Of a stretch of DNA of 64,000 bases, positions 4,918-27,000 are shown piece by piece. Positions within the stretch are counted from its first letter, which is position 1. Each line of letters starts with the position of its first letter. The notes below the pieces were generated by a model. It saw only the letters and a program-made list of their open reading frames with translations, was not told the DNA's origin and ran no database searches. This stretch comes from an uncultured Erysipelotrichaceae bacterium (GTDB lineage Bacteria > Bacillota_I > Bacilli_A > RFN20 > CAG-826), in contig CADCGC010000002.1 of assembly GCA_902800905.1 (NCBI GenBank), forward strand, positions 59,774-123,773, read 5' to 3'. A program made the position numbers and the translations under genes.

Positions 4918-4932
4918 GTTAAATAGTATAAT
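4903..4932 (+). promoter_or_regulatory. putative sigma-70-type promoter (TTATCA-N18-TATAAT) for the FucU/RDD genes
   Basis: TATAAT at about 4927-4932, 28 nt upstream of the ATG at 4960, with a weak -35. Confidence 0.35.
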
Positions 4933-4959
4933 ATTATTCGTATATACGAGGTCAAAACT

Positions 4960-5382: not shown

Positions 5383-5385
5383 TTA

Positions 5386-6557: not shown

Positions 6558-9290
6558 ATGAATTTTAAGAAAACTTCATTATTGTTTGTTGCTGGTATGG
6601 CAGGAGCAATGTTAGTTTCGTGTACTCCAAAAACAACATACTACAACATTAAATTTTTTAACGATGACGGAACTCTTCTTCAGGAATCTAAAGTAGAAAA
6701 AGACAAGATGCCTGAATACAAGGGAAATGATCCGGTTAAGGACGCAACAGCAGAGTATACATATACTTTTAGTGGTTGGAGTCCTGAACTTGCACCTGCA
6801 ACCAAGGATGCATCTTACACTGCGACATATTCCTCTACGAAGAACTCTTACACAATCAAGTTTGTCAATTATGATGGCGAAGAATTATCTAGTCAATCAT
6901 ATGAATATGGTGCGATGCCTGAATACACAGGAAACGACCCAGAAAAAGCACCAACAGTGGACACTGTTTATGAATTTAGTGGTTGGACTCCAGAAGTAGT
7001 TAGAGTTACAGGTAACGCCACATATACAGCGACATTTACAAGTTCTACAAGAAAATACACAGTTACTTTTGCCGACTGCAACCTTGACCCAGTAGAAGTT
7101 GAATATAATCAAACACTTGAAGAACCTGAAGATCCTGAAAAGGCAGCTACTGAGGATTATGTTTATTTCTTCACTGGCTGGACATTAAATGGCGAGCCAT
7201 ATGACTTTGATTCAAAAATAACTGGTGATATAGTCCTTAACGCTAATTGGGAAGCTGTCAGTGCTAAAGAACACGGAAATAGATGTACATACATTCATTA
7301 TCCGGAGAAGGAAGCAACATATTTAGAAGCAGGACACGCTGAATTCTGGTATTGCGAACTTCATAAAAATTATTTAGCAGAAGAACCAACCGTTGGAACA
7401 ATTGAAGAAGCCGAAGAAGATTTTGAAGGCACTGTACCCGAAGGCATCGAAGTTTATCCTGTTCTTGAAGGTGGAGACAAATATCTTACTATCGATGTTG
7501 GTGGTGATGACACTAAAGACAAAGCTGCTCTTTGGACAAAAGATAGATATGAAGATATTTTAGGAATTACTTTCAAAGCCAGAATCAGTGGTGGAAGAAA
7601 AGACGAGTCAAAGACCCCATGGATTGGATTCACATTTGATGCCGACCACACTTTATATAACAACCCAGTATTTGCTTCTGATAAATATGTCTTTGATAAT
7701 CACTGGCGTGTTTATTCAATTTCTGTTGACTTAAAAAACGGACCTGCAAACTTTGTTTACGCAAAAGGTGAGTTTGCTGAAGGAAGCAAGTTGGATATTG
7801 ATAACATTTCTATTACATACGCAGATGGAACAGCTTTTGAAAACTTTGATGGTGAAGAATCATTATTTGAATTTGATGAAGATGTAGCCAAATATAATGC
7901 GGTTAGAAAAGACAATACATTCTTTAGAATTAATATTGAAACCGACAAGCAAAACACTGGTGATAATGCATTAGGATTTTCTATTAAGAAATATGATTCA
8001 ATCTCTAAAGTCTCTTATAAGATGAGAGTTACTGCAGAAACTCCTGATGTTGATGATCACGGAACACCAAAATGGGCTGGTATTGGTGTTGCTAATAATC
8101 ATGACTTATACACTAATATGAGAACAGCGTCATACTTGTTTGATGGAGAATGGCATTCATATAATGCTTCATATACATTAGAAAGCGGATTTGTTAACCT
8201 TATTCATAATTCTGGCCAATTCTTTGCTGGAACAACGCTCGATTTCGATGATATTGAAATCACATATGAAGATGGCACTGTTGTCGATTCATTTGAAGAA
8301 GCATTTATATTTACTGGAACATTTGAATACGTTCAAACCAAAGACGCTCGTTATGCTCAATTTGCGTATCTTGAATCAGAAGAGATTTTACCTCCAACAA
8401 ATTGCTTTGCAAGAATCAATCTTTCAACAATGCAATCCTCATCTCCTTTATATTCAAATGAGATGTTTACAAATATCACAAATATCCAATTTGATTATCG
8501 TTTAACAACAAAAAAGAATGCTTGGTGGGGCTTTGGCATTTCAACATATGTTGAACCAACATGTTATGACACCGATCCGGGTCACGTTGATTGGAAAGTA
8601 ATGCCTGGAAATGGTAACGCAGATGGACAATGGCATAGAGAAGTATCTCTAGCGATGAATGGTGGTACAGGCAGATTTAAATTTGTTTTTGCCGCTAACG
8701 AATTTGATGCTACTGGTTCGACAATGGATTTAGACAACATTATTATCACTTATGATAATGGCAAGACTGCAGTATTTGACTTCTTAGGTGATATGCCAAT
8801 TAAGACAACTGCTTCATTCATTCCTGAAGAACCAGAAGAACCAGAAGTTTTAGTGGATTGCTATGCAAGAATCAACCTTTCTACAAACGAATCATTATCA
8901 CCATTTGTTTCAGTAGATCAATTTGAAGATATTAGCAATATTACATTTGACTATCGTTTGACCACTACAAAGAATTCTTGGTGGGGATTTGGTGTTTCTA
9001 CTAAAGATAATCCAAACGTCTATGATAGTGGATGTAATGTTTGTTGGAAAACAATTAGTGGAAACGGCACTCCTGATGGTGAGTGGCATCAAGGTTCTAT
9101 CAACATTACTGGAACAGGTAGATTTGTCTTCATCTTCGCTGCTGGTGAATTTGATTCAAGCGATTCTACACTTGATTTAGATAACATTGTTCTTACCTAT
9201 AATAGTGGAGAAACCGTAACATTTGATTTTACTGATGTAAGTAAATTTAATGTTAAAACAAATCTTGTTACTTTCATTCCACAAGAATAG
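6558..9290 (+). CDS. surface lipoprotein with three Listeria/Bacteroides-type (Flg_new) repeats, a Cys/His mini-module and two tandem WWGFG beta-sandwich (CBM-like) domains
   Basis: Start trimmed to MNFKK behind GAAAGGAA. Lipobox LVSC. The repeat architecture is read directly from the translation. No catalytic motif recognised. Confidence 0.6.
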   Translation: MNFKKTSLLFVAGMAGAMLVSCTPKTTYYNIKFFNDDGTLLQESKVEKDKMPEYKGNDPVKDATAEYTYTFSGWSPELAPATKDASYTATYSSTKNSYTIKFVNYDGEELSSQSYEYGAMPEYTGNDPEKAPTVDTVYEFSGWTPEVVRVTGNATYTATFTSSTRKYTVTFADCNLDPVEVEYNQTLEEPEDPEKAATEDYVYFFTGWTLNGEPYDFDSKITGDIVLNANWEAVSAKEHGNRCTYIHYPEKEATYLEAGHAEFWYCELHKNYLAEEPTVGTIEEAEEDFEGTVPEGIEVYPVLEGGDKYLTIDVGGDDTKDKAALWTKDRYEDILGITFKARISGGRKDESKTPWIGFTFDADHTLYNNPVFASDKYVFDNHWRVYSISVDLKNGPANFVYAKGEFAEGSKLDIDNISITYADGTAFENFDGEESLFEFDEDVAKYNAVRKDNTFFRINIETDKQNTGDNALGFSIKKYDSISKVSYKMRVTAETPDVDDHGTPKWAGIGVANNHDLYTNMRTASYLFDGEWHSYNASYTLESGFVNLIHNSGQFFAGTTLDFDDIEITYEDGTVVDSFEEAFIFTGTFEYVQTKDARYAQFAYLESEEILPPTNCFARINLSTMQSSSPLYSNEMFTNITNIQFDYRLTTKKNAWWGFGISTYVEPTCYDTDPGHVDWKVMPGNGNADGQWHREVSLAMNGGTGRFKFVFAANEFDATGSTMDLDNIIITYDNGKTAVFDFLGDMPIKTTASFIPEEPEEPEVLVDCYARINLSTNESLSPFVSVDQFEDISNITFDYRLTTTKNSWWGFGVSTKDNPNVYDSGCNVCWKTISGNGTPDGEWHQGSINITGTGRFVFIFAAGEFDSSDSTLDLDNIVLTYNSGETVTFDFTDVSKFNVKTNLVTFIPQE
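6637..7260 (+). repeat. 3 tandem ~70-aa repeats (Y.Y.F.GW.P.......Y.A.(Y/F)), Listeria-Bacteroides/Flg_new-like
   Basis: YTYTFSGWSPELAP..ASYTATYSST, YEFSGWTPEVVR..ATYTATFTSS and YFFTGWTLNGEP..DIVLNANWEA. Confidence 0.55.
8403..9260 (+). repeat. tandem duplication of a ~150-aa beta-sandwich module (C(F/Y)ARINLST...FDYRLTT.KN.WWGFG(I/V)ST...DG.WH...TG.GRF.F.FAA.EFD...ST.DLDNI..TY)
   Basis: The two copies are ~60-70% identical at the DNA level, for example tgctttgcaagaatcaatctttc vs tgctatgcaagaatcaacctttc and ggtggggctttggcatttc vs ggtggggatttggtgtttc. Confidence 0.7.
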
Positions 9291-9304
9291 ATTTAAATAA
9301 TAAT

Positions 9305-9328
9305 TGGTCTGGTTTAAGCCAGACCTTT
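9305..9328 (+). terminator. rho-independent terminator after the surface lipoprotein gene
   Basis: GGTCTGG-tttaag-CCAGACC followed by TTTT. Confidence 0.6.
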
Positions 9329-9344
9329 TCGTTGGAGTGTCATT

Positions 9345-11594
9345 ATGAAAACCACATTAACAAACAACTGGAAGCTTTACATTGTAAAAGATTCTGACTT
9401 AAACCCTGATAATCTAGATTTTGCTAAGTATCAGTGTTTTAATAATGTTTCTATTCCAACTTTGTTGGAATTAGAACTTTATCGAAATCATATTCTTGGT
9501 CATCCATATGAATCAACGAATATCTGGAAATACCACAAATATGAGGATTATCATCAATTTTATGTTGTTCATTTTAATTCAAATCGCAAACAAAAAGTTT
9601 TGATCATCAATGGTGTTGACACGATTGCTGATGTTTTTGTTAATGGTGAACTAGTTGGAAAAACAGAGAATATGTTTATTTCATATTCTTTCAACTTGAG
9701 GAATCTAAAAAAAGATAACGAATTAATCATCCATATTTATCCATCTGTTTTAGAAGGAAGAAAATATAAAATAACCGATGACTTATTTGCGTTTAAGTAT
9801 AATTACGAAAGCTTAAATATAAGAAAGTGCCCTTCTAGTTTTGGGTGGGATATTTTACCTAGAACCGCTTTAGGTGGAATATATAAAACCGTTGAAATAG
9901 TTGACTCCCTACCTATTATTGAAGACGTTCATGTCATTGCGGCAAATATTTCTAAAGAGTCTGCTAATCTAAAATTTGATATTACTTATCGTAAGATTGG
10001 TAACTATGAAACAATCATTGAAGGTAAGTGTGGAAAACAACTTTTTTTCACTAGGAGCAATAAAATAAAAATTCATAACCCAAAACTATGGAACATTAGA
10101 GGTTATGGAAAGCCTAATCTTTATAAGATTAAAGTTAAACTTTATGAAAATGGTAAGCTAATTGAAACAAAGTCATTTAGATATGGAATTCGTAAGGTTG
10201 AATTAAAAAGAACATCAACTGTTCAAGAAAATGGTTGCTTTGAATTTTATATCAATGACCGAAAAGTATTTTTGATGGGATGTAACTGGGTACCTGTTGA
10301 AGCAATCAAACACATTGATGATGAAAGAATGCTCGTCGCCCTTAACGCAGTTGAAGATTTAAATTGCAACACAGTTAGAGTGTGGGGTGGTGGTACTTAT
10401 GAATCTGATAGGTTCTATGAAGAATGTGACAAAAGAGGAATTTTTATTTGGCACGACTTTATGATGGGCTGTGCTTCTTATCCTCAGACACCAGACTTTA
10501 AAAGAAAATTAAAAACCGAAATCAATTACATTGTTAAGAAATTAAGAAACCACCCATCTATTTGCTTGTGGGCTGGTGACAACGAAGATGATTTAGCGAT
10601 TAAATATTGGGCGGTTAATAAAAGAAGTCCTAGCACAAACATTTTAACTAGAGAATTGATTCCAAACATTTTAAAGAAAGAAGATAACTATCGACCATAT
10701 TTGCCATCTTCTCCTTATATTGATGAATACGCAGAAGCACATCTAAAAGAACCGCTAAGTGAAGATCATCTTTGGGGCCCTCGTGATTACTTTAAAGGCG
10801 AATTCTATGGCAACGCTGTCGCATATTTTACAAGCGAAATAGGATATCACTCCTTAAGCTGCTTAGATTCTTTACAAAGATATCTTCATAAACCATGGCC
10901 TTTCTTTGAAGGAGAAATTGAAAAAGATCCAAATTCAAGACTACTAAAAAAAGCGAAACCAACAAAAGAATATATGTGTCATGAAACTGTTGCAATGGAG
11001 GATTATGAATCTCCATTTGAATATCGCATTCTTTTAATGGTTAATCAAGTAAGAACCTTATTTATCAATGATTTTGATAATATCAATGATTTCTCTATTG
11101 CGAGCCAAACTTCACAAGCTGAGGCAATGAAATACTTCATTGAGAAGATGAGAAAAGATTATAAACGCAACGGTGGAATTATTTGGTGGAATATTCTCGA
11201 TGGGTGGCCACAAGTCAGTGAGGCATTATTAGATTATTACTTCAATAGAAAGAAAGCGTATGACTATGTAAAGATTTGTCAAAGTAAGAACTTATTGATG
11301 ATGAACGAAGATCCTGATGGTTTAAATCTTTATTTTGTTTCTGAAGATGACAAGAAACATAGATACACTTATGAAATAATTGATGCTTATCAAGATAAAT
11401 TAATCGATAGTGGTTCTTTTGTCTCTAGTCCAAGAGATTCAATTAAGATAAAGAAAGTTAATGCGGCAGAAAAGACATTATTGATTCTTAAATACAAAGA
11501 TGAGCGTGGAAAGGAATGCACAAATCATTTCCACACTCATATCATTGATATTGATTTATTTAAATATTTAGATGCAATGAAAAAATATTATTAA
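9345..11594 (+). CDS. GH2 beta-mannosidase
   Basis: 749 aa. GH2 sugar-binding region with FGWDILPR (GWDW-type motif), NTVRVWGGGTYESDRFYEECDKRGIFIWHDFMM and WAGDNE (acid/base region), as in bacterial beta-mannosidases. Confidence 0.7.
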   Translation: MKTTLTNNWKLYIVKDSDLNPDNLDFAKYQCFNNVSIPTLLELELYRNHILGHPYESTNIWKYHKYEDYHQFYVVHFNSNRKQKVLIINGVDTIADVFVNGELVGKTENMFISYSFNLRNLKKDNELIIHIYPSVLEGRKYKITDDLFAFKYNYESLNIRKCPSSFGWDILPRTALGGIYKTVEIVDSLPIIEDVHVIAANISKESANLKFDITYRKIGNYETIIEGKCGKQLFFTRSNKIKIHNPKLWNIRGYGKPNLYKIKVKLYENGKLIETKSFRYGIRKVELKRTSTVQENGCFEFYINDRKVFLMGCNWVPVEAIKHIDDERMLVALNAVEDLNCNTVRVWGGGTYESDRFYEECDKRGIFIWHDFMMGCASYPQTPDFKRKLKTEINYIVKKLRNHPSICLWAGDNEDDLAIKYWAVNKRSPSTNILTRELIPNILKKEDNYRPYLPSSPYIDEYAEAHLKEPLSEDHLWGPRDYFKGEFYGNAVAYFTSEIGYHSLSCLDSLQRYLHKPWPFFEGEIEKDPNSRLLKKAKPTKEYMCHETVAMEDYESPFEYRILLMVNQVRTLFINDFDNINDFSIASQTSQAEAMKYFIEKMRKDYKRNGGIIWWNILDGWPQVSEALLDYYFNRKKAYDYVKICQSKNLLMMNEDPDGLNLYFVSEDDKKHRYTYEIIDAYQDKLIDSGSFVSSPRDSIKIKKVNAAEKTLLILKYKDERGKECTNHFHTHIIDIDLFKYLDAMKKYY

Positions 11595-13522
11595 TTTAAT
11601 AATATTGCCGCAATTGAGGATGCAAATCCATGATTACAAGAAGCGGTTGGAATATTCTTTTCCCATAATGTTCCAGAGTAACTAGCCATAGTGTAGAAGT
11701 AATCAATTGATTCTTCATACACTTTTTCTTTTTCGCCAATACTCTTTAGCCATAGGAATCTTAAATAGTTTCCTATAAATGAATTGCTTCTTGCTATTTC
11801 TGTGTAAGTGTCTTTTCTATTTGGCCCTAGTTCGTTTTTAATAAATTCTATGAAACGCTTATCGTTACTAATACCGAAGAACAGTGCGTAGTATTGGCAG
11901 GTCTCACTGGTATGGTTCTTTTGAAGAATTAATTTACCATTTTCTCTAACTGCGTTATCAACATAAACTTTCCCGTTAAATGATAGTTTATTGATATTTG
12001 AGGCGACTTCTTGCGCTTTATTTAACAAATTATTATCTCTAAATAACTCTCCAGCCGCTCTTAACATAGATGAGTAAAGCATATTTGTTGGGAACGAAAG
12101 GCCTTTAACATAATCCTCTGTTCCAGCTTCACTCCATTCAACAAAAACCCAGCCATTTAAGTTTTCTAAGAGGCGATATTCGTTTTCAAATTTTTCAAAA
12201 TAATGAATAAGTTTATATATTTTCTCTTTAGCAGCATTAACCAATTCTTTGTCGTTTGTCTTTTTGAAATAGTTTTCTAATTCAAGAACAAACCACATAG
12301 ACCAATTAGGAATGAATAATGATTCTTGAGATGGGAACACCATCGGGAGCATACCTTCTTCGATTTCGTCATATCTAGCGATGATAAAGTTTTCTAAGAA
12401 TTGTTTTTCTATATTATTGTTTTTAGCAAAGAATGATTCTGCCATAGACATAAAGTATCCATCACAAAGCCATCCACCTCTTTCTCTTCCAGGGCAGTCA
12501 GTATAAATGTCAACGGAGTTTTGAATGAATGTTTCCCTTGCTGATTTAATAATTAAATCAAGCTTTTTGTTTCCTGTTTCTTTAATTTCTTTGATAGTGT
12601 CGTTTTGAATTAAGATAAGTGAAGGAACGACTTCACATTTTTTGTTTGTGAGAATTCTTAAGTGCTTTAGGGAATATACAGTTGAAGTGACGACTTCGTT
12701 TTGACCTTTGTTGGATTCCACTGTTATCAAATCCATACAGCTCGATCTTCCAAATATCCATTTCCCATTATCAAGATATTCATCAAAGACAACAAAAATC
12801 TTGGTGTCATCTTCCTGAGCGTTTATTTTTAATTTAATTAGACCACTTTTTTCAATTGCTGATTCATATTCATTACAAATATATCCATTTATTTCATCAA
12901 CGAACTCTTTTTCGACATTAAAAGAATAAAATTCCGGATGGTCATTATCTTTTAAATAATTAGGAATTTTAACTGAATCAAATCCTTTAAATATAAATTC
13001 TTTTTTGTGATTGAACTTTTGTTCTTTATATAAACAAGTATCGCCAATACCTCCAATGAGCGTTGGATTCTCTACTTCATATGTTATAAGCTGTTGTTCA
13101 TTAATATTCGATAAGTTAAATCTTTCTCCAAACCCTCTTTGAAAACTATATTTGAAAGAACGGTTATCGTGTTTTGATGATTCAAACGCTAAAAAGTTAT
13201 CAGCAGTCGCAACAATTTGGTCTTTATAGTAGAGTTCGGCTCCAAAAAATGGTTCGAAGAAGTCGGCGTCTAAAGATGGGCAACCATATGATAAAACAAG
13301 AACTTCAATTTCTTTTGTTCCTTTTGGTATATGTATATTCCTAATTCTTGAAAAACCTTCCGCGGTTCTTTCTGGCCCATATGAAACTAGCTTTCCATCG
13401 AAAAATACTGTATAAAAAGGACCAGCACTTAGACTAAGTATATCGCAGTCTTTAGTTAACCTATATTTAAAATAAACCTTTATTTCGAACTTTTGATTTG
13501 TTTTTGCCCAAACGTGTTTCAT
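11591..13522 (-). CDS. six-hairpin glycosidase-like protein, GH78 (alpha-L-rhamnosidase)-like catalytic domain
   Basis: 643 aa. The DCPGRERGGWLCDGYF motif resembles the D.P.RER.GW.GD signature I associate with the Bac_rhamnosid6H domain. This is from memory only, and the protein is short for a GH78. Confidence 0.4.
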   Translation of the reverse strand: MKHVWAKTNQKFEIKVYFKYRLTKDCDILSLSAGPFYTVFFDGKLVSYGPERTAEGFSRIRNIHIPKGTKEIEVLVLSYGCPSLDADFFEPFFGAELYYKDQIVATADNFLAFESSKHDNRSFKYSFQRGFGERFNLSNINEQQLITYEVENPTLIGGIGDTCLYKEQKFNHKKEFIFKGFDSVKIPNYLKDNDHPEFYSFNVEKEFVDEINGYICNEYESAIEKSGLIKLKINAQEDDTKIFVVFDEYLDNGKWIFGRSSCMDLITVESNKGQNEVVTSTVYSLKHLRILTNKKCEVVPSLILIQNDTIKEIKETGNKKLDLIIKSARETFIQNSVDIYTDCPGRERGGWLCDGYFMSMAESFFAKNNNIEKQFLENFIIARYDEIEEGMLPMVFPSQESLFIPNWSMWFVLELENYFKKTNDKELVNAAKEKIYKLIHYFEKFENEYRLLENLNGWVFVEWSEAGTEDYVKGLSFPTNMLYSSMLRAAGELFRDNNLLNKAQEVASNINKLSFNGKVYVDNAVRENGKLILQKNHTSETCQYYALFFGISNDKRFIEFIKNELGPNRKDTYTEIARSNSFIGNYLRFLWLKSIGEKEKVYEESIDYFYTMASYSGTLWEKNIPTASCNHGFASSIAAILLN

Positions 13523-13523
13523 T

Positions 13524-15668: not shown

Positions 15669-15750
15669 TAATTCTTATATAACAAATTATAAATTGTTTT
15701 TCCCCATCAATATATTTTTTTGATTAGAATTGAAAAAAAATAATTCTATT

Positions 15751-15779
15751 TTGTGTGTATGTATTTACAGGCGTATAAT
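15751..15779 (+). promoter_or_regulatory. putative promoter TTGTGT-N17-TATAAT for the 15-kb surface-glycan operon
   Basis: TATAAT at about 15774-15779, 25 nt upstream of the ATG at 15804. The divergent intergenic region 15669-15803 also contains the inverted repeat AGAATT-N10-AATTCT at about 15726-15747. Confidence 0.4.
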
Positions 15780-15803
15780 TTGTGTATATCGAGATTTTGA
15801 ATT

Positions 15804-16703
15804 ATGAAAAAAGCTAAACGCAAGCATAATTCTCGTTCTTATCTGCTAACCAAAAGAGAAAAAATCATTTTAGGTATTGTTTTTGTTTTGCTTCTAATCT
15901 ATGCTTTGTCTCTTATTTTCCCATTCTTCTTTTTGCTGATGAATTCTTTCAAGGATGAAGTTGAATATTTTTATGACTCAACAGGTTTCCCAAAGACTCC
16001 AACATTTGAGAATTATATTACTTTATTTAGTGGTTATAAGGTTGGAACAGGTATTGGTGATGGCGAAGCCACTATTGGAGAGATGTTCTGGAATTCTATC
16101 TCACTAGCGGTTGTTGAAACAGTCACATCAATGTTCTTTACTTGCTGTGCAGCTTATGTTTTAGCAAAATACAAATTCCCGGGAAATAAATTCTTATACA
16201 CCTTTGTTATTGTTAGCTCTGTTGTTCCTACCATTGCAGCTATTTCTGCTACATATCGATTGATGTCAGATATTCAATTAATTGGAACATTTATTGGAAT
16301 GATTATTATGAACTGTGGCGCCTTTACTGGTGGGTTCTTATATATTCACAGCTATTTCAAGAGTATCCCTTGGTCATTTGCGGAATCTGCGATGATTGAT
16401 GGGGCAAGTGATTTTAAAATTTTCTTTAGAATTATGATTCCAATGGCGAAGAACGGAATCCTTACTTTCACTATTTTGAGATTTTTGGGATTTTGGAACG
16501 AATATTGGATTCCATATTTGTTCTATCCAAACCATCCAACTTTAGGTGTTGGATTGACTCTTTTAAAAGCAGAAGCTGTTAATACAGGTAGTTACACGAT
16601 GTTATTTGCTGCAATGATCGTGGCAATCGTTCCTATTTTGATTTTCTACGCTATATTCCAAAAACAATTATTATCAAATACTATCGACGGAGGATTGAAA
16701 TAA
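15804..16703 (+). CDS. carbohydrate ABC transporter permease (MalG/AraQ/LplC-like)
   Basis: 6 TM helices. EAA loop ESAMIDGASDFKIFFRIMIPMAKNG. Confidence 0.8.
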   Translation: MKKAKRKHNSRSYLLTKREKIILGIVFVLLLIYALSLIFPFFFLLMNSFKDEVEYFYDSTGFPKTPTFENYITLFSGYKVGTGIGDGEATIGEMFWNSISLAVVETVTSMFFTCCAAYVLAKYKFPGNKFLYTFVIVSSVVPTIAAISATYRLMSDIQLIGTFIGMIIMNCGAFTGGFLYIHSYFKSIPWSFAESAMIDGASDFKIFFRIMIPMAKNGILTFTILRFLGFWNEYWIPYLFYPNHPTLGVGLTLLKAEAVNTGSYTMLFAAMIVAIVPILIFYAIFQKQLLSNTIDGGLK

Positions 16704-16710
16704 TTAAGTT

Positions 16711-17625
16711 ATGAATGTCCAAGTGTTGAATAAGAAAAAGAAGAAAAAGATTAACGTTAGGCGAGCGCTTTTTATCGCTGGAATGTTAGCGATTCCACTC
16801 ATTCAATTTGGAATATTCTTTGTTTATGTAAATATCAATTCTATCTTGTTGACATTTAGAGTTGTTGATCCAATCACTGGTACATACGGATGGGGACTAG
16901 ACAATTATCAAGACTTCTTCTATCGATTCACTGAATATCCTGATTACAAAGATGCGATATTTAATTCGTTGATGTTTGGTCTTAATGATTTGCTCCTTGT
17001 TTTGATATCTCTTGTTTTAGCGTATTTCTTCTTTAAGAGAATACCTGGCACTCAATTCTTTAGAATTATATTCTTCTTACCATCTATTATCTCTATTGTT
17101 ATTTATACAATGGCGTATTCATTGATGTTTAAGGCTGGCTCAGGTCCAATCAACGTTTTAATTACTTCTTTAGGAGGAGAGGAGCCAGATTGGCTACTTG
17201 ATGAAAACCTAGCAAGAATGCTTGTTATGATTTATTGTTTGTGGGTTGGTACCGGATATAACATTTTGATTTTTGGTGGTGCGATGGCAAACATCAATAC
17301 TGAAGTTATTGAGTACGCTAAACTCGACGGTGTCGGCATGTTTAGAGAATTATTCCAAGTTATTCTCCCGATGATTTGGCCAACACTATCGGTTGCATTC
17401 ATTGGTAGTGTTACTACTGTCTTTACATTATTTATTCAAGTTAAATTAATCGTTGGTGATTCGTTTGGAACACCTCGAACAATCGCATTCTTGATTAACG
17501 ACAATGTTATGAGTAATCAGGAAAAAGCCGCCACAATTGGTATTATTTTCACCGTTGTTGCTACCCCGGTTATTTTACTTGTCAGAAAACTTATTGATTA
17601 CGTTGGAAAGAAATTTGGTTATTGA
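16711..17625 (+). CDS. carbohydrate ABC transporter permease (MalF/AraP/LplB-like)
   Basis: EAA loop EYAKLDGVGMFRELFQVILPMIWP. Multiple TM helices. Confidence 0.8.
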   Translation: MNVQVLNKKKKKKINVRRALFIAGMLAIPLIQFGIFFVYVNINSILLTFRVVDPITGTYGWGLDNYQDFFYRFTEYPDYKDAIFNSLMFGLNDLLLVLISLVLAYFFFKRIPGTQFFRIIFFLPSIISIVIYTMAYSLMFKAGSGPINVLITSLGGEEPDWLLDENLARMLVMIYCLWVGTGYNILIFGGAMANINTEVIEYAKLDGVGMFRELFQVILPMIWPTLSVAFIGSVTTVFTLFIQVKLIVGDSFGTPRTIAFLINDNVMSNQEKAATIGIIFTVVATPVILLVRKLIDYVGKKFGY

Positions 17626-17646
17626 TATAAATTGGAGGCCATATTT

Positions 17647-19956
17647 ATGAAAAAACAACTAACTCTATTACTCGGACTATTTGGATTAACTGCCATTGCT
17701 TTTAGTGCGGTTGGTCCAAACTATCATTCAACAAGAGCAGGATCAAAAGAAATCCTAATTGTTGATGACAATTTTAATGATGGCAATTATCGTCAAAGTT
17801 ACGATCCATCAAAATGGTTAGAACCGATTGGAGGACACATTAGACAATCAGATTCTAATGAAAGTTATTTAACAAATAAGGGAGCGGCAGCCACTAATGG
17901 TGAAAGACTTATGTTTGGCACCAAACAAATGGTTCAAGGCTTATCCTTATTTAAAATTGATGTCTGTCTTAGGAATGATGAATGGGTAGGAATTAAGTTT
18001 TATAAAGAACTCCAAACCCCTAGTTCAATGGCCCAAAATGCATATGATATGTCAATTCTTTTCCATAAGAGTGGAATTACTCCAAATAATAGTGTCTCTA
18101 CTGGACAACAATTATTTAGACATGATGGAACAGAAGCCCCCTCTGGCGGAATTGGATTACTTGAGGTTTGTGGTATCTCTAGTTCTATTGGAAATTGGGT
18201 GACTCTCGACTTTGTTCCAATTGATGCGAATAATATGACTCTCTACGTTTATCCACAAGCAGAAGGTCGTAACGCTGACAGATCTGTGACCATTAAATGT
18301 AGTGAAGATGGACTTATGAATTATGGGAATTGCCAAATTGGTATTCAAGCCAGTAATGGTGCAAGATATTCAATCGACAATTTAGTGATCGAAAGTACAA
18401 ATATAAATGTTAATGAAGAATTCGTTTCTTTTGATGATTCACTTCCAGAGAATCCTTTGGGATACGTCAAAAAGAATGGCGGTTCTTATGTTTTAGATGG
18501 TAACAGCACTCTTAGATTTGCTCCAGAAGCAATGGAAGGAGAAAAATTTGTTACTAAAAAGAAAATTGCTCTTGATATGACTATTGCAGCAGCAGTTGAA
18601 ATGATTAATGCGAAATTCAATCTTAAATTCAAATCAACCGCAGCCTCTAGTGAAAAAATCGCGTTCTTTGTTGGCTTAAGTAACGCTAGCTATGATTTAT
18701 CTCAAGGCGGATGTTACTTAGAATTTAACAAAACAAAGGTTGAATTAAAACTCTTCAAAAATGGTGTTCTAATTAATAGTGAAGAAGAACAAAGAATTCA
18801 AAAGGCAATCGATGGATTAACAAGTTCTGAAGGTAGAAATATTACTGTTTCTGTTCAAAAGAACGGAATTCTTAGAATCTATGTTGAAGATGAACTTTTA
18901 TATTCTTTAGAAGACAATGAAAACGAAGAAATGAGAGTGTCAAAATACGCTGGATATGTTGGCTTTGCGGTAACTGGTGGTTTAGCTCAAGAAGTCAATG
19001 TTGATAACGTGTTAATTAAATCTGCAAGTTATTATGTACCAGTGACAAAATCTGTCACCCATAATTTCTCTAATGATTTCTTTGGAAACGAAGGACATGA
19101 AGATTTCTATATTCCTGATAGTTATGCTGGAAAGATTTCAGTAAAAGATGGAAAACTTGATTGGGATAACTGCGCTGATAACGCGATGTTTGGTTCTGCA
19201 TATCAATATGATGCCTTTATATTAGATTACAAACTTTGTAATGTTAGAGTTGGTGAAGGATATACAGCCCCAAATAAATGGATTGGTTTAGATCTCTCTA
19301 GAGAAAGCAAATATGTTACTGAATATGGTAGTTATTTAATGCCATATATTGAAATCGTTCCAACTACTGAAGAAGTTAGAATGAATTTCTATAAGAAAGA
19401 TTCTTCTCCTCTTGATGCAAACGAGCTTGTTAAGAATATGATTGTTGAACACAAGAGAATCCCTGCGAAATGGTTTAGAGACATTCAATACACAAACGCA
19501 TCTGATGTTTATAACATTAAAGAAGAAAACGCGGTTTGCATTAGATGGGTTAGTGATGGCACAAACTTAGACTTATACCTCAAGAGAGCGGATGACCCAG
19601 TATTTGGTGAACCATATTACACAATTAAGAATCTTGAAATCCAAGGTTACTTTACTTTGACTGTCACTGGTTGGACAACCCTCCAATATGATGATTTCTC
19701 AATGGCAAATACCTCAACTCTTTACGTTTGCGCGGATAACGAATCTCCAGAGACAATCATTGATACACAAATCACAATTATCTATGAACCTGGCACAGAC
19801 ATTAACTTAGGCGAAGAAGTTAGATTATATAGCAACAACACTCTTTGGATTATTTTGGTTGCGGCTTTAGGAACAACTACTGTTGCCTTTGCTGCTTTAT
19901 TTATCGTCAATCTTGTTAGAAACAAGAAGATGAAAGGAGGAGCAAAGAATGAATAA
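17647..19956 (+). CDS. membrane-anchored surface protein (N-terminal signal peptide, C-terminal TM anchor plus basic tail), function unknown
   Basis: Start trimmed to MKKQ behind GGAGG. Signal LLLGLFGLTAIAFSA. C-terminal LWIILVAALGTTTVAFAALFIVNLVRNKKMK. It contains a DNLVIES...FVSFDD segment similar to the ends of the beta-sandwich modules in the neighbouring proteins. Confidence 0.5.
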   Translation: MKKQLTLLLGLFGLTAIAFSAVGPNYHSTRAGSKEILIVDDNFNDGNYRQSYDPSKWLEPIGGHIRQSDSNESYLTNKGAAATNGERLMFGTKQMVQGLSLFKIDVCLRNDEWVGIKFYKELQTPSSMAQNAYDMSILFHKSGITPNNSVSTGQQLFRHDGTEAPSGGIGLLEVCGISSSIGNWVTLDFVPIDANNMTLYVYPQAEGRNADRSVTIKCSEDGLMNYGNCQIGIQASNGARYSIDNLVIESTNINVNEEFVSFDDSLPENPLGYVKKNGGSYVLDGNSTLRFAPEAMEGEKFVTKKKIALDMTIAAAVEMINAKFNLKFKSTAASSEKIAFFVGLSNASYDLSQGGCYLEFNKTKVELKLFKNGVLINSEEEQRIQKAIDGLTSSEGRNITVSVQKNGILRIYVEDELLYSLEDNENEEMRVSKYAGYVGFAVTGGLAQEVNVDNVLIKSASYYVPVTKSVTHNFSNDFFGNEGHEDFYIPDSYAGKISVKDGKLDWDNCADNAMFGSAYQYDAFILDYKLCNVRVGEGYTAPNKWIGLDLSRESKYVTEYGSYLMPYIEIVPTTEEVRMNFYKKDSSPLDANELVKNMIVEHKRIPAKWFRDIQYTNASDVYNIKEENAVCIRWVSDGTNLDLYLKRADDPVFGEPYYTIKNLEIQGYFTLTVTGWTTLQYDDFSMANTSTLYVCADNESPETIIDTQITIIYEPGTDINLGEEVRLYSNNTLWIILVAALGTTTVAFAALFIVNLVRNKKMKGGAKNE

Positions 19957-21430
19957 TAAAGATAGAATTATTTCTTCAATAGGATTTGTTCTAACTCTTG
20001 TTCTTCCTTCTTGTAATGCAGGACAACTAAATGTCCCTGCTTTTGAGCATGACCCTAATAAGAGAATTCATATTACCGCTTATTCAGGTCCAACAAGAGC
20101 GAAATTAGTTACTCCAACTAGTCCAGAAACCCTTACTGAAGAGCATATGAGAAAAGTCTCTGAAGCAGGCTTTACAAAGATTCTTGCTCTATATGAAGGC
20201 GCTGGTAGACAAGTAGGCAATGATACCTATGAAATCATTGAAAATCTATCCCAAAAAGCGCAAGAGGACGCCTTAATTGCTTTAGACTTAGCGGAACAAT
20301 TTGGCATCAAATACTATGTCAGAGACTGGTCATTTTATGGAATGGTTAAGCAATACGCTGACCCAACATATAACCATCCTGCCATTTTAACTGATGAGCA
20401 ATATGACAAAGTGCTTAAGAAGATGTTCGATGAAAATAACCAATATATCCATCATCCTGCTTACGCTGGTAATTTCTGTCATGATGAGCCGTTTTATAAC
20501 GAGCTTGATCGTATCGCAGTTCAAGTTGATTTATACCAAAAATATATGGCAGAACAAAATGCTTATGGTGAGCCGATTGTTAATCTTTTACCAATGACCG
20601 CTGGCGCAGACGCTTTCAGTGGACATTCATATTATGAATATGTTGATCATTATTTTGATTTAATCGCACCAAAAGTTGGCTTTGTTTCTTATGACTTCTA
20701 TCCATTTAGAGAAGATAAAGATGATGGAAGCTATTTGAAAGATTTATATGTTCCAAACCTTAACCTTATGGCGACAAAATGCAAGGATAACAATATTGAT
20801 TTAAGAACATTTATCCAAGCTGAAGGTGATTTTACCGGAACAAGAAGCATGACTGGTGCGGCTGATTTCAGATTCCAAATCTACACTGAACTTGCCTTTG
20901 GTTCTAAAGAAATTATTTATTATGAATACGCAAATGCGAAGAGCCAGGCAGACCCAGAAGCCGATTATGCTTTATTTAATACTGAAACAGAAGAATATAA
21001 CTGGACATATGACGCTGCAAAACTTGTGAATAATGAAATTCATCAAATCGAAGATGCATATTTGCAATATAAGTGGGATGGTGTTATGTACAAGTGTGCA
21101 AATGAATTAATTGAGAATATTGGTTTCTCTTATCTTAAAGGAGAAAAATATACTTTTACTTCTCATCCACGTGTGAGCATTGAAAATTGTGAACGTGACG
21201 CTCTTATGGGTGTGTTTAAAAACGAAGCAAACGATGATGCGTTTATGCTAGTTAATTACACAGACCCATACTTCAAATTCAACAACAAAGTAACCCTTCA
21301 TTTTAATAATGCAAAAGGATTACTTATGTATCGTCTTGGACAAAAAATGGTGGTTGATCTCCCTTCTAGTGGTAACTATACATTTGATCTTTATCCTGGT
21401 GAAGGAAGATTCATTATTCCAATTAATTAA
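19949..21430 (+). CDS. lipoprotein, uncharacterised conserved enzyme-like family (paralogue 1 of 3, possibly a TIM-barrel glycoside hydrolase-like domain)
   Basis: GGAGG RBS. Lipobox LVLPSC. It shares the blocks ..EAGF.K.L.L(Y/F)EG, NLLP, YFD.IAP.VG(F/Y)VS(Y/F)D.Y, N(I/V)DLRTFI, F(R)FQIY..LAFG(S/A)KEIIYY.Y and W(S/K)WDG with 22878..24068 and with the C-terminal third of 24058..28371. Confidence 0.5.
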   Translation: MNNKDRIISSIGFVLTLVLPSCNAGQLNVPAFEHDPNKRIHITAYSGPTRAKLVTPTSPETLTEEHMRKVSEAGFTKILALYEGAGRQVGNDTYEIIENLSQKAQEDALIALDLAEQFGIKYYVRDWSFYGMVKQYADPTYNHPAILTDEQYDKVLKKMFDENNQYIHHPAYAGNFCHDEPFYNELDRIAVQVDLYQKYMAEQNAYGEPIVNLLPMTAGADAFSGHSYYEYVDHYFDLIAPKVGFVSYDFYPFREDKDDGSYLKDLYVPNLNLMATKCKDNNIDLRTFIQAEGDFTGTRSMTGAADFRFQIYTELAFGSKEIIYYEYANAKSQADPEADYALFNTETEEYNWTYDAAKLVNNEIHQIEDAYLQYKWDGVMYKCANELIENIGFSYLKGEKYTFTSHPRVSIENCERDALMGVFKNEANDDAFMLVNYTDPYFKFNNKVTLHFNNAKGLLMYRLGQKMVVDLPSSGNYTFDLYPGEGRFIIPIN

Positions 21431-21444
21431 AGGAGTTAATCAAA

Positions 21445-22854
21445 ATGAAAAAAGGAAACAAACTTATTGGAACATTGTTATTTAGTTTAGCAATGATTCT
21501 TCCATCTTGTGGTGGAACTCAAGATGACTTCAAAGGCACTTACATTGACTTTGGATTTTTGAAAGCAGGTATTGGCACTGAAGTTTATGAAAAGATCGCG
21601 GAAGCCTACCACACTGAACACCCAGATTACAAAGTCAAACTCCATGCCTCTATTGATATTAACAATATTGCGAAGAACTCATTTGAATCTGGAAAGAATA
21701 TCTATGATATTTATTCTTTAAGACAAAATAACGTTATTACTCAATACTATATCAAAGGATACTTGCTTGATTTAAAGGATGTTGTTTATAACGCTGAAAT
21801 TGCTGATGGAAAAACGCTTTTAGAATTATGTGATGAAAGCGTAATTGAGTATTCAAAATATTCCACAGAGAGAGATGGTGTGGTTGAAGACCACTTTGTC
21901 AGTGTTCCAGAGTTCGTTAATGTTAATGGCTATGTTTATAACAAGAAACTATTTGCACAACACGGATGGAAAGTTCCAAACACTACAGAAGAAATGAAAG
22001 CTCTATGCTTACAAATTGCTGCAGCAGGAATTTCGCCGATTGTTTTCTGTTCACCTAACTCCGCTGATGGATATGTCTATTATCTTTTAAACGGAATTAA
22101 TACTCAGTATGAAGGCATTCAAAATATGAAAGATGCCTATAAGTTTGAAAGTGCAGAAATCTTTAATCCTAGTAATCGTACAGGTAAACTTCACGCACTA
22201 CAAACCTTCAAAGATTTGTACAAGGAATCTAACGGACTAGTTTATCCTAACTCAATCAATATTGACGCTCAAGAAGCACAAAAAGCTTTGCTTTTAGGAA
22301 GAGCAGCAATGATGGTTAATGGTTCTTGGTTTGAAACAGAAATGAGAAAATTCATTGATCCAAGCAAGCATGAATTAGCGATGTTCAAAGTTCCTGAATA
22401 TTCTGAAGACGGAGAAATTCTCCATGCTCCTGGATACACAAACGATGGTAAAGGAATCATCGATAGTGAATATACCGCCGAATATGTTATTCCTACTTTG
22501 GCTCCTCATAAAGAAGCCGCAATCGATTTCTTAAAATTCATGCAAAGACCAGATATTTGTGAACTTTATACAAAGTATAGTAACAATATCCGTCCATTCA
22601 AATATAACAAAAACCCAGAGAGTAGTGTTTATTCAAATATGTCTTCATTTGGTAAAACTGTTTTACAACTCGCAAATGAAAACACACTCTTTGTCGCATC
22701 ATCAAAACATCCAAAATACATTCTTGGTGAAATCTCTTATTGGCCATCAGGTGATAGTGATAGGTATCACACCAATAGACTTCTTAGACAAGACAAAGAA
22801 CCAATTGATTGTTTAGAGGTTGAATATAATAACGCCAAGAAGGTTCTTGGATAG
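21445..22854 (+). CDS. lipoprotein, carbohydrate ABC transporter substrate-binding protein (family-1 SBP, LplA/MalE-like)
   Basis: AAGGAG RBS. Lipobox ILPSCGG. ~470 aa, the size and composition of a cluster-D sugar SBP. It sits between the permeases and the enzyme paralogues. Confidence 0.55.
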   Translation: MKKGNKLIGTLLFSLAMILPSCGGTQDDFKGTYIDFGFLKAGIGTEVYEKIAEAYHTEHPDYKVKLHASIDINNIAKNSFESGKNIYDIYSLRQNNVITQYYIKGYLLDLKDVVYNAEIADGKTLLELCDESVIEYSKYSTERDGVVEDHFVSVPEFVNVNGYVYNKKLFAQHGWKVPNTTEEMKALCLQIAAAGISPIVFCSPNSADGYVYYLLNGINTQYEGIQNMKDAYKFESAEIFNPSNRTGKLHALQTFKDLYKESNGLVYPNSINIDAQEAQKALLLGRAAMMVNGSWFETEMRKFIDPSKHELAMFKVPEYSEDGEILHAPGYTNDGKGIIDSEYTAEYVIPTLAPHKEAAIDFLKFMQRPDICELYTKYSNNIRPFKYNKNPESSVYSNMSSFGKTVLQLANENTLFVASSKHPKYILGEISYWPSGDSDRYHTNRLLRQDKEPIDCLEVEYNNAKKVLG

Positions 22855-22877
22855 ATTAAGAATAGGAAGATTTAACT

Positions 22878-24068
22878 GTGAACAAAGATATTAAATTTGG
22901 CTTTTGGAATTACGCTCCGTTTGGTGTTATTAGTAACAAAGAAGCGGTAAAAGATTGGGTTAATGCTGAATCTAATTTACCGATGAGCTTTGTTTATGAT
23001 TTTCATAACGGAAATAAAGAAGAAATAATTGAACTTCTTGATGAATGCCAAAAGAGCAACTTAAAGTTAATCATTTCTGATACCAGAACTATTTTTAGAA
23101 ATCTTTGTTCAGTCAGTGAAGAACAATTTAGAAAAGACGTTAAAGCGGCGTTTGATGATTTCGGTCATCATCCTGCCGCTTTCGGCTTCTTTGTTGGAGA
23201 CGAACCTTCTCCTGAAGAAACAGATTTATTTATAAAAGCCGTTAAAATTGTTAAAGAAGAAACGCCTGGACTAGTTCCTTTTGGTAATCTTCTTCCATAT
23301 TTTGGAGCAAGTGACCATGTCTTAGACATTGGGAACAAAAACTTTGAATATTATTCCAATCTAGTGGGCAAGATATTAAAAGAAACCGGACTTCCAGTTA
23401 TTGGATACGATCAATATAGCCAGTGCTTAGATGATTTAGGCAATCAAGAAACCGGAATCAATAGCTATTTCATTGGTTTGGACAAATATTATGACTTATG
23501 TAAGAAGAACGATTCTTCCTTCTATATCTCTCTTCTTTCGGTTGGACACTGGATGTATCGCGTTCCAAGTGAAGATGATATTAGATGGCAAATATCGACC
23601 GCTTTTGCTCATGGGGCTAGAGGAGTTATTTGGTTCTATTTCTATCAAGATGATAAAGATTATAGTTATCGCTTATCTCCATTTACAAATTATGGACTCA
23701 AGAAAACTCCGATGTACGATATCGTGAGTCGAGAACAATATCTCTTCAAAAAAACATTTGAAGATCAATTCAACAAAATGGAACTCGTTAATGTTTATCA
23801 TCTAGGCCATATATATGATGAAAACAAAAGATTTGTTTATGACGAATATATCAAAGATGTAATGGTAGATAGAAAACTTCCTGTTATCATTTCGTATTAT
23901 AAAGAATTTAATAGCGACAAAAAGTGGGTTTCATTTGTTAATGGATCTCAAAAATATGCGAGTATTTTAAGAATCACATTTTCTAAAGGACACAAAGAAG
24001 TGTTCTGGCTTGCTCCTGGAGAGATGAGACTATTTGATTTAGACGAGGTTTGCACTAGTGAAGAATAA
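22878..24068 (+). CDS. cytoplasmic paralogue (2 of 3) of the uncharacterised enzyme-like family
   Basis: GTG start and no signal peptide. HHPAAFGFFVGDEP, GNLLPYFG, GYDQY, GARGVIWFYFYQD correspond to the same blocks as in 19949..21430. Confidence 0.5.
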   Translation: MNKDIKFGFWNYAPFGVISNKEAVKDWVNAESNLPMSFVYDFHNGNKEEIIELLDECQKSNLKLIISDTRTIFRNLCSVSEEQFRKDVKAAFDDFGHHPAAFGFFVGDEPSPEETDLFIKAVKIVKEETPGLVPFGNLLPYFGASDHVLDIGNKNFEYYSNLVGKILKETGLPVIGYDQYSQCLDDLGNQETGINSYFIGLDKYYDLCKKNDSSFYISLLSVGHWMYRVPSEDDIRWQISTAFAHGARGVIWFYFYQDDKDYSYRLSPFTNYGLKKTPMYDIVSREQYLFKKTFEDQFNKMELVNVYHLGHIYDENKRFVYDEYIKDVMVDRKLPVIISYYKEFNSDKKWVSFVNGSQKYASILRITFSKGHKEVFWLAPGEMRLFDLDEVCTSEE

Positions 24069-27000
24069 AACCATATCTATTTTGTTTTTAGGAGTTATTG
24101 GAGTTGTCGCATCTGCGATAGCTTTATCGCACTCTCATGATGTTGCTTTAGCTAGTGGAACGGATGAACATTCAAGTTCATGCACCTGGAATCACTATTT
24201 AAGAGTTGAACCGACATATGAAAATGATGGAATACAAGAATATTATGTCTGCTGTTCTCATCATGAAAGCGTTCTAGAAAGACCAACACTTGGGACAATC
24301 GTTGATAAAGGCACTCCATCCTCTTCTTTTATCAGTGGTTTAGAAGATAATGATTTCAGATTAATTCCTTCATATCGAAAACAAGTTAAACCAGTTCAAG
24401 ATGAAATTGATGGGCTTTCTGAGGCGTTTAAGATATCTGATGGCAGTCAAATTGATAAAGCATATAACCTTTATAACAACACTAGTGAAGAGCTTAAAAC
24501 CTATGTTAATGATGTTTCAAAATTAGAAGGCATTTATGAGAGATACCACGAATCATATGATGTTCTTATCGATACAGTTAATAATGAATATCAATCAAAG
24601 ATATATAATTCGAATTATGATGTTGAACCAGTTTTAAATGAAAACGCTGGATATTGTTCTTCTTTTACTAATATCACTCCAACTGATGACAACTGGATTG
24701 GTTTTGGCACTTCAAAGACCACAAATATTTCAAACTATAGCGAGATATTGCTCTATGTATATAGCAACCTAAATTTCGATTGTGATTTTGATGTTAGGTA
24801 TTCTGGTAGCACTTTTGACTTAACAAACAAAGTTAAAGTTTATTCTAAATCATGGAGTGAAATAACAATTCCTCTTTCAACATTTATAACAAATCAATTG
24901 AAAGACTTATTTGTTGGTACATGGATTAGTGATGCTAGATATAACACTTTTGAGAATGGGTTTTTATTCTCTTCGCTTTACGGCGTTAAAAAGATTACTA
25001 CCCCAAGTAGAACATATATTGATTTGTCTGATGATCAAAAGACCACTGACACAGTCAACTTTGTTGGTGACAAATATATTGAAGACGTGAATTATGCAGC
25101 CTTTGTTTATTCTCCTGCTTATTCTGCTTCACTTGGAAAAGTTAACTTTATTACCACTCAACCATATAGCAACGTCACCTCTGTTAGTTTTGATGCGAAG
25201 ATCGATGGAACGGCGACAGGATGGTGGGGTATTGGCCACTCAACCTCTATTGAAAACGCAAGAATATATAACGGAATGTGCACAACCGGTGTCAAAAACA
25301 CTCAAAACGAATTCCAACATATCGCAATTAATGTTAGTGTAACTGACCCGGAATACATTTACTTTATTTTTGAAGTTGGAACATTTACTAAAAATGTCTA
25401 TATCGATAATGTCACTATCGTTAGTGGTGGAGTTGAATACACTGATGATTTTGATAGCGGTTCTTCAGCCTTATTTAATAATTCTTCATCAGTTTTAGGA
25501 AATGCAGTTAGCATTCAATTAATCAGTAGCGATGCTAAATTCTTATCACGTTCAGTAAAAGACTACTATGTTGAAGTTAGTCCATATAATTACGATACTT
25601 CGACATTATATACACGTTCATCTTATACAGGTGTTTATAAGGTTTCTTATGACGCAAAAGTTGATGGAACAATTGTTAATAATCTTTCAAACAATGAACA
25701 AATTTGGTGGGGTTTTGGTGTTACTGATGACCCAACAAACGTTTACTCTGGACTTCAATTTGTTAGAGAAGTGCTATCTACTGATAATGAATGGAAACAT
25801 TTTGAATATGAGATTCAAACTCCAGTTGATGGATATGTTCACTTTGTGTTCAATCCATTAAAGACGAATGTTCCTGTTCTTTTAGATAACATTACTTTCT
25901 TTACTGAAGGTAGTGTCTTTGTTGAAAACTTTACTGATGGGCTATCCACTTTATTTAATGTTGGCGCTCATCTTGATATTAAGAAGAAGAGCGACCCATC
26001 AATTACCTTCAATGGTGGAATTAACGCCTCAGAAAAAGACTATTCTGTCTTAATGGATATTTATAATTATGGCAACGTTTCTGGCAATGAAGCGACATTT
26101 AAAACAAAAGTTCCATATAACAACGTTACGAGTATCTCCTATGATATGAAGATTGATGGGACCATAACATTTACAAACACAGATCCATATTGGGTTGGTG
26201 TCGGTCATGACGCAAATCAAAACGCTAGTATCTATAAAGGACTTAGAACATCTAACACATTTACTACTAATGATGGTTGGATGAGATTTACATATACATT
26301 CTCTGGACTAGGCTTAGAATATTTCTTCTTTGTTTCTAATCCTGTTCACGCCCATAACAATGTTTATTTTGACAATGTCATTATTGTTAGTGATGGAGTG
26401 GAATACACTGATACATTTACCAACGGAAAGAGCGAACTATTTAATTTAGGTTCTTATGTTTCTTTACATTTTGAATCAGAAAGCATGACCGATGAAATTG
26501 CCTATAATGTATTAACAGAGAGTCAATGCTATTTTGAAGGTCCTCAATTTGTTAGAGATAATTTAGAAAATTATGAAGCCTTAGTGTATGGCTCTATTGC
26601 TCATCAAATTACAGGACAAGGAAGGTATGCGATTCTTATTTATAATGATTTGAATGTTGCGGAATATTTATTTGTTGATGATGAATATATTTCTTACTGT
26701 TCTAATACTTCAATAATTAATGCCACGTCTTATAATGGGCAGTCTTATAACATCAGTGTTTCAGTAGATGGAAGAATAACAATTAACAATCAGATTCTCG
26801 CTATTTCTAGTGGAGTTAATGATTCACTTAAATTTGTGTCGTTCTTTAGCCAAGGTTCGGTTGTCTTTACTGATATTTCTTTAGATTCAACTTATAGAGA
26901 AATTCATACTTCTGAAACAATTGATGGAATAGAAGTTCCTTACTTATATTCAGAAGATAATATTGTGTTTAACGCATATGGTTCTCCAACAGTTGCCGAT

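Follow-up and report, generated by a model that had tools for sequence, protein, structure and literature searches.

A repeated jelly-roll module in two secreted proteins of an uncultured Erysipelotrichaceae bacterium: a candidate new family of carbohydrate-binding modules

What might two large secreted proteins without a family assignment contribute to a locus for glycan catabolism? The question is raised by a 64,000-nucleotide stretch of DNA (the window; G+C content about 34%) from an uncultured Erysipelotrichaceae bacterium (GenBank assembly GCA_902800905.1, contig CADCGC010000002.1, a metagenome scaffold), in which two such proteins, A and B, are encoded between 5 and 31 kb. Both carry copies of a module named here after its WWGFG motif, which a preliminary reading of the bare DNA, made without database searches (the sequence-only reading), had put forward as a new carbohydrate-binding module (CBM). 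The evidence of domain architecture and genomic context tips slightly towards the view that the modules, extracellular and without catalytic activity, serve a polysaccharide-utilisation locus (PUL) of Gram-positive type, where they would bind glycans, and that they constitute a candidate new CBM family.

Seven copies of one module and their wider family

A hidden Markov model (HMM) was built from the five copies listed by the sequence-only reading and searched against all six-frame open reading frames (ORFs) of the window. Those five were recovered by construction, and two further, diverged copies emerged in protein A with independent E-values (i-E) of 1.8e-15 and 2e-10; the window therefore contains seven copies of a module of ~130-140 amino acids (aa), four in protein A and three in protein B (Table 1). 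The earlier count of at least five thus holds as a lower bound, the motifs said to unite the copies are present where they had been placed, and the repeated, appended layout is borne out by the seven tandem copies in two proteins. No other window ORF scores below E=0.05 with the module HMM. The C-terminus of protein C, which had been offered as a tentative sixth copy, was rejected (HMM E=0.19; hhalign probability 22%), as were protein D, which shows no relationship to the module, and residues ~205-240 of protein B, a would-be fourth copy in that protein whose weak match belongs to the distinct type-2 module described below.

Table 1. Window coordinates of the modules and of the genes and domains discussed with them
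Feature	Position	Strand	Description
Protein A	6558..9290	+	Lipoprotein, 910 aa; 917 aa if read from the upstream ATG at 6537
Module A1	7500-7874	+	Diverged, 'PWIGFTF' and 'IDNISITY'; i-E 1.8e-15; missed by the sequence-only reading
Module A2	7956-8318	+	Diverged, 'KWAGIGV' and 'FDDIEITY'; i-E 2e-10; missed by the sequence-only reading
Module A3	8397-8792	+	'AWWGFGIS', 'LDNIIITY'
Module A4	8853-9254	+	Tandem duplicate of A3
Protein B	24058..28371	+	1437 aa; orthologue P0006 (1443 aa) in a syntenic locus
Type-2 module	24550-25002 (protein B aa ~165-315)		About 165 aa; motifs 'NWIGFG...YVYSN...GF.F.SLYG'
Module B2	25099-25485	+	'GWWGIGHS', 'IDNVTIV'
Module B3	25561-25965	+	'IWWGFGVT', 'LDNITFF'
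Module B4	26056-26448	+	'YWVGVGHD', 'FDNVIIV'
Beta-rich segment of protein B	26458-26830 (aa ~800-925)		Between the last WWGFG module (B4) and the GH-A-like domain
C-terminal domain of protein B	26830..28368	+	GH-A-like, ~510 residues; (beta/alpha)8 barrel and beta-sandwich
GH-A-like lipoprotein paralogue	19949..21430	+	No modules; part of the conserved cassette
GH-A-like paralogue	22878-24068		Apparently cytoplasmic
Cys/His mini-motif	7272-7364 (A), 24169-24264 (B), 28509-28595 onward (N-terminus of protein C)		
Protein C	28392-30677		Lipoprotein: Cys-rich repeats, Y_phosphatase3 domain, unassigned C-terminal beta-rich domain
Conserved cassette adjoining the module proteins	15804..22854	+	Recognised by Pfam and by gene order in other loci
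Protein D	17632-19956		774 aa, secreted, C-terminal membrane anchor
Flanking catabolic genes	47-6450 and 9345-15668		Coherent set

Protein A is composed of a lipobox (LVSC), three InlB-B/Flg_new-like repeats, a Cys/His mini-motif and the four modules, and contains no catalytic domain; a 910-aa protein identical to it (P0001) is present in public metagenomes. Protein B starts with a signal or anchor sequence, a Cys/His motif, a type-2 module and the three WWGFG-type modules, and continues with an unassigned beta-rich segment followed by a TIM barrel with a beta-sandwich that resembles enzymes of glycoside hydrolase (GH) clan GH-A. Its N-terminal ~345 residues show 47% identity to P0006. Lipoprotein or signal sequences are found on the components of the module system in the window.

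The modules differ in how recently they appear to have arisen. A3 and A4 are reciprocal closest relatives (56% identity versus at most 37% to any other module), and they share 55-56% of their residues and 68-72% of their nucleotides over about 380 nucleotides. The DNA-level likeness that had been reported for this pair is therefore real though modest, and the two observations together indicate a lineage-specific tandem duplication, for which the earlier description as recent was too strong. Each of B2, B3 and B4 has its partner at the equivalent position in P0006 (58% identity in the case of B2), so this triplication is older. The best relative of the diverged copy A1 is the first module of the orthologue P0009 (40%), and A2 is 35% identical to A1.

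Identity between modules of proteins A and B is low (19-27%, compared with 29-55% inside one protein), which could be taken to mean that the shared motifs are chance or low-complexity artefacts and that there is no real repeated domain. That explanation can practically be dismissed: it is refuted by within-window HMM E-values of 1e-10 to 1e-54, by the homologous clusters described next and by a confident predicted fold, and it is equally at odds with the positional orthology of B2, B3 and B4 to modules of P0006.

Relatives of the module came to light only in an exhaustive search. A word-indexed protein search returned nothing for the seven-module alignment and, for residues 300-917 of protein A, only the protein itself; a scan of GTDB genomes with protein A likewise found no relative. 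An exhaustive HMM search of 1.84 billion (1.84e9) protein cluster representatives recovered 126 clusters at E<=1e-3, of which 75 reach E<=1e-10 and 28 reach E<=1e-30. Almost every one of these proteins is multi-copy, with 2-11 modules; the 11 of P0007 are separated by Cys-rich spacers. Domain content was analysed in 44 of the proteins, where Pfam identifies MAM in 11, Flg_new in five, dockerin in three and DUF4886 in one. Literature searches on bacterial MAM-type CBMs, on the GH95/GH112/GH130 cluster and on recent new CBM families yielded no description of the module.

Predicted fold, remote relatives and conserved residues

AlphaFold2, run on an alignment of seven sequences with A3 as the modelled copy, produced a confident all-beta jelly roll of about ten strands, with a predicted local distance difference test (pLDDT) score of 85.2 and a predicted template modelling (pTM) score of 0.80, consistent with the discrete beta-sandwich that the sequence-only reading had envisaged. 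As modelled, this is the common jelly roll that type-B CBMs share with MAM and LamG domains, and no solved structure is closely related to it. The best Foldseek neighbours are a lipase accessory domain, InhA2, CBM6, CBM4 and meprin chains, at E-values of 4e-3 for InhA2, 3.5e-2 for the meprin chains and above 1e-2 for the CBM6 chains, which are weak neighbours; template modelling (TM) scores for InhA2 and meprin are about 0.45-0.48. The matched domain of InhA2 is presumably MAM-like, and the likeness to InhA2 and meprin is one of fold, common to many CBMs.

As proxies for family membership, Pfam-A 2025, NCBIfam 2026 and profile searches of all sequences in the PDB were used, and none gave a module match above threshold. 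The Pfam models CBM_6, F5_F8_type_C, CBM_35 and NPCBM match neither the whole proteins (E<=1) nor the seven modules (E<=10), in agreement with the earlier judgement that the module is not CBM6, CBM32, CBM35 or CBM51. Similarly, CBM_4_9 (PF02018) has no match in the window proteins or in 17 single modules (seven from the window and ten from homologues), and an NCBIfam scan of six locus proteins found nothing. A profile of the seven modules has no meaningful match among all PDB sequences; a profile of 34 modules has one, borderline, to TmCBM4-2 (1GUI; E=6.8e-4, 22.7 bits). The alignment to 1GUI covers most of the module (profile positions 24-108), beginning with the 'SFdAk' strand and ending with the last one, 'liDnv.i'.

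The 1GUI match raises the possibility that the modules are highly diverged members of an existing family in CAZy, either CBM4/CBM22 or a recently founded family that has no Pfam model. This is improbable, as the PDB-wide profile search gives no other CBM, neither CBM_4_9 nor any other CBM model matches the window proteins or the 17 modules, and both the W-W-G-x-G strand and a C-terminal extension (see below) are specific to the module family. More generally, the searches returned neither a confident match to a CBM or lectin family nor a fold foreign to carbohydrate binding, the two outcomes on which the sequence-only reading would have given up its proposal.

Similarity to MAM (Pfam PF00629) is recurrent and partial. 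For protein A as a whole the score is 24.4 bits (cutoff 26.4) and comes from the last (C-terminal) strands only, and protein B has no Pfam MAM match. When the seven window modules are compared with Pfam singly (E<=10), A3 gives a MAM match of 13 bits and the other six give nothing; of ten modules taken singly from homologues, six reach 18-21 bits and the remaining four are without a match. The aligned segment covers profile positions about 103-155 of ~158 (73-152 in one module), and in the six homologue modules it lies mostly at about 106-155. The 11 of 44 homologues that pass the MAM threshold as whole proteins are all multi-repeat proteins (best E=7e-34), and because single modules score low, these calls arise by summation. 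In addition, the alignment of 114 modules has no conserved Cys column. In animals, MAM domains carry conserved cysteines and serve in protein-protein interaction. Judged by sequence comparison, the module thus appears to be a distinct family within the MAM/CBM4-type jelly-roll superfamily, and a member of neither family by that family's own criteria.

Conservation was assessed in the same alignment, which contains 114 non-redundant modules from 45 proteins. Near-invariant are Y24 (95/114), F32 (98/114), W43 (111/114), Y57 (100/114), W79 (112/114), Y93 (99/114), D113 (108/114), F129 (111/114) and F136 (101/114); conservation is lower at W44, G45 and G77, retained in 76, 73 and 86 of the 114 modules, respectively. 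Along the strand formed by residues 44-49 of the model, positions 44, 46 and 48 are 84-100% hydrophobic and positions 45, 47 and 49 are small (G/A/S/T), an alternation that gives the second tryptophan a core-facing pattern. W43 lies at the entry of this strand, beside the stripe of small residues, and is near-invariant across paralogues that are otherwise 15-30% identical, a pattern that fits residues which determine the fold better than residues that set ligand specificity. The twin-tryptophan motif that the sequence-only reading had regarded as a mark of carbohydrate binding is therefore present but has to be qualified in that role, and for the conserved Trp, Tyr and Phe residues a place in the fold core is likelier than one in a ligand site.

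F129 and F136 lie in a family-specific extension of about 25 residues past the canonical last strand, which CBM4 and MAM domains both lack. Conceivably, the small-residue stripe and W43 form the surface against which the extension packs. Better candidates for specificity, on the pattern of conservation, would be the variable loops, such as a ten-residue insertion found in A3 ('GHVDWKVMPG', with its 'VDWK' core; 8580-8609, residues 62-71) and in A4 ('CNVCWKTISG'). The insertion brings a conserved Trp and an extra predicted strand, and is present in about 6-13 of the 114 modules.

These properties leave room for a rival view, in which the modules are MAM-like domains for protein-protein interaction or self-association, or rigid spacers, without a sugar-binding function of their own. 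Such a role would suit the InhA2 and meprin chains in the Foldseek list, a MAM signal that is below threshold in each module and strong by summation, the mostly core-like character of the conserved positions, and the array of up to 11 near-identical repeats with Cys-rich spacers in P0007, which has the look of a stalk; the unrelated type-2 module that co-occurs with the WWGFG modules could then be the real binder. However, the MAM likeness is confined to the last three strands and stays below the per-domain threshold, the conserved cysteines are absent, the genomic context is uniformly one of glycan catabolism, and the only PDB sequence match is to a CBM4. On this evidence the MAM-like or stalk role is rather unlikely, though it deserves serious consideration.

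The reading of the modules as glycan-binding has its own difficulties, and the following observations weigh against it. With the module model, no Foldseek match in the PDB reaches E<=1e-3, the top structural neighbour is a chain of the metalloprotease InhA2, immune inhibitor A2 of Bacillus anthracis (PDB 4YU5/4YU6), and MAM is the only recurrent Pfam signal. Since most of the conserved residues are core-like, the sequence offers no positive sign of a sugar site. Finally, apart from one DUF4886, no GH, polysaccharide lyase or carbohydrate esterase domain is recognised by Pfam in the 44 homologues, so that the argument from appendage to a carbohydrate-active enzyme (CAZyme) comes to rest on an unclassified, putatively catalytic GH-like domain.

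The GH-A-like partner domain and the conserved locus

That domain, at the C-terminus of protein B, has no Pfam or NCBIfam match. Among its 19 homologues, one contains PF02449 (GH42). AlphaFold2 predicts a TIM barrel with a beta-sandwich (pLDDT 88, pTM 0.89), for which Foldseek returns members of GH51, GH30, GH42 and GH164 at E-values of 1e-8 to 7e-11 and TM scores of only 0.4-0.5; a profile of the domain has weak matches to GH42 beta-galactosidases among PDB sequences. Enzymes of clan GH-A carry their acid/base residue in an 'NEP' motif, and at the corresponding place the GH-A-like family has an invariant 'DEP' (D203, E204). The modules are fused to this domain in protein B and in 6 of the 44 homologues, drawn from both module subfamilies. 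Taken together with the model, these features make the domain the presumed catalytic partner of the modules, and its family a candidate new family of glycoside hydrolases. Two paralogues are encoded nearby (Table 1). The lipoprotein form shares 32% identity with the domain in protein B, and it is transporter-adjacent in four further loci (L002, L005, L059 and L060) as well.

Other elements travel with the WWGFG modules. Many of their carriers (P0008-P0012, P0020, P0023, P0029, P0030, P0042, P0047 and P0049) contain the type-2 module, either as one copy or as a tandem of 2-4. The type-2 module has no Pfam match and no PDB sequence match, and comparison of its profile with that of the WWGFG module reveals no detectable relationship (hhalign probability 0.6%). 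Directly upstream of the module arrays is the Cys/His mini-motif, 'H..C.W.HY...(~15)...E[FY][WY].C..H', which is kept in P0006 and in P0008-P0014; repeats of a related pattern, C..H...C..C, make up the N-terminus of protein C and lie between the 11 modules of P0007. The motif has no convincing Pfam match, with faint A24_N_bact and zinc-ribbon matches in homologues, and it may be a small zinc-binding spacer domain.

Adjoining the module proteins is a conserved cassette consisting of two ABC permeases, protein D, the GH-A-like lipoprotein and a solute-binding protein. On either side of protein A are catabolic genes that encode a GH112 lacto-N-biose/galacto-N-biose phosphorylase, a GH130 enzyme, an MsmK-like ABC ATPase, a FucU mutarotase and an RDD membrane protein, along with GH2, a GH78-like six-hairpin protein and GH95. 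The closest relatives of the GH112 protein (69%) are found in metagenome-assembled genomes of uncultured 'Bacilli bacterium' from sheep colon and horse faeces, and the next closest in Clostridia such as Candidatus Scatosoma.

A similar neighbourhood is apparent in seven module-protein loci from other organisms. The GH-A-like family is fused to or adjoins the module protein in all seven, and a solute-binding protein or permease of an ABC transporter is called in five; GH95 is called in four and GH78 or a GH78-like protein in four, with either or both in five. Loci L002, L005, L059 and L060 have a common order of permeases, D-like protein, GH-A-like lipoprotein, solute-binding protein and module protein. 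In four loci outside the window, a gene for a D-like protein directly follows the ABC permeases (23-37% identity). In another genome (L008), dockerin-bearing versions of the module protein adjoin GH95, GH112, GH2 and GH130, and GH29 is present in relatives of the locus.

Two of the neighbouring proteins have peculiarities of their own. Protein D has no Pfam or NCBIfam match; strand motifs of the form '..(I/V)DN(L/V).I..' occur in it several times, and it may hold jelly-roll domains of another kind. Protein C contains a tyrosine-phosphatase-like domain (Y_phosphatase3, E=8e-29), and an extracellular domain of this type is odd for a glycan locus.

A possible role, and comparison with known systems

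The modules are displayed outside the cell by two routes: as arrays on enzyme-free lipoproteins, as in protein A, and N-terminal to an unclassified clan-GH-A-like glycosidase domain, as in protein B. Most likely, the modules would bind the target glycan of the locus, and the multivalent arrays would hold this substrate at the cell surface, beside the enzyme and the binding protein of the transporter. CBMs and surface glycan-binding proteins (SGBPs) play this substrate-holding role in other PULs. GH95, FucU, the GH78-like protein, GH112, GH130 and GH2, together with GH29 in relatives, suggest that the target is a plant or host glycan containing fucose and/or rhamnose.

It is possible, though tentative when all its parts are taken together, that the WWGFG module founds a new CBM family and marks an uncharacterised Gram-positive system of glycan utilisation that extends across uncultured gut Bacillota. 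Such a system would include the type-2 module, the membrane-anchored D-like protein and a new clan-GH-A-like GH family with three paralogues per locus, and would target a plant or host glycan containing fucose and/or rhamnose through a mode of recognition unlike that of CBM4 or MAM. The hosts are abundant uncultured Bacillota of herbivore and human guts. Were glycan binding to hold, the new CBM family would flag both a new GH family and a conserved locus that current annotation misses, CAZyme annotators would gain new models, and there would be a handle on the complex glycan being harvested, for which rhamnogalacturonan, arabinogalactan-protein caps and plant or host N- and O-glycans are candidates. 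Were the modules MAM-like scaffolding instead, this would be a routine case of unclassified beta-sandwich repeats.

Set beside MAM and InhA2, the module is a beta-jelly-roll of similar size whose last three strands fit the MAM profile 'W..y.v.l ... y.i.f.g ... liDdv.i'. It differs in that single modules reach 13-21 bits of the 26.4 required and do without conserved cysteines, in an N-terminal half that is about 25-30 residues shorter and an extra C-terminal hairpin (F129, F136), and in a context of bacterial glycan catabolism as opposed to animal cell adhesion or a protease.

The resemblance to CBM4, as represented by CBM4-2 of Thermotoga maritima Lam16A (1GUI) and by the CBM4-like module of PbXyn10C (4MGQ), includes the sole PDB sequence match and the arrangement of modules in tandem, N-terminal to a glycosidase-like domain. 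In contrast to CBM4, however, the module has no CBM_4_9 match and only a borderline relationship in sequence, many of its carriers are without a catalytic domain, and its W-W-G-x-G strand aligns to a 1GUI strand, 'PINVKIL', that is not aromatic. With regard to the terms in which CAZy describes a CBM, the module is a contiguous, discrete fold in the AlphaFold2 model, with boundaries that are reproducible across the 114 modules; as to its residence within a carbohydrate-active enzyme, it is fused to an unclassified GH-A-like domain of putative activity in protein B and 6 of the 44 homologues, and most carriers, protein A among them, lack a catalytic domain.

In overall design, the closest parallels are the surface glycan-binding proteins and multi-CBM lipoproteins of PULs, among them the SGBPs of Bacteroidota and the binding proteins of Gram-positive PULs. 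They, too, are non-catalytic surface lipoproteins built from beta-sandwich modules in tandem, with genes next to those for the transporter and glycosidases of one locus. The analogy is functional, with no relationship in sequence, and in the present locus an ABC importer stands in place of SusC/D. Neither the fold nor the general role is unfamiliar; what current annotation misses is a family of ~126 clusters that Pfam and NCBIfam do not include and that is tied to an unannotated GH-like family, a type-2 module and a conserved gene cassette in uncultured gut Bacillota.

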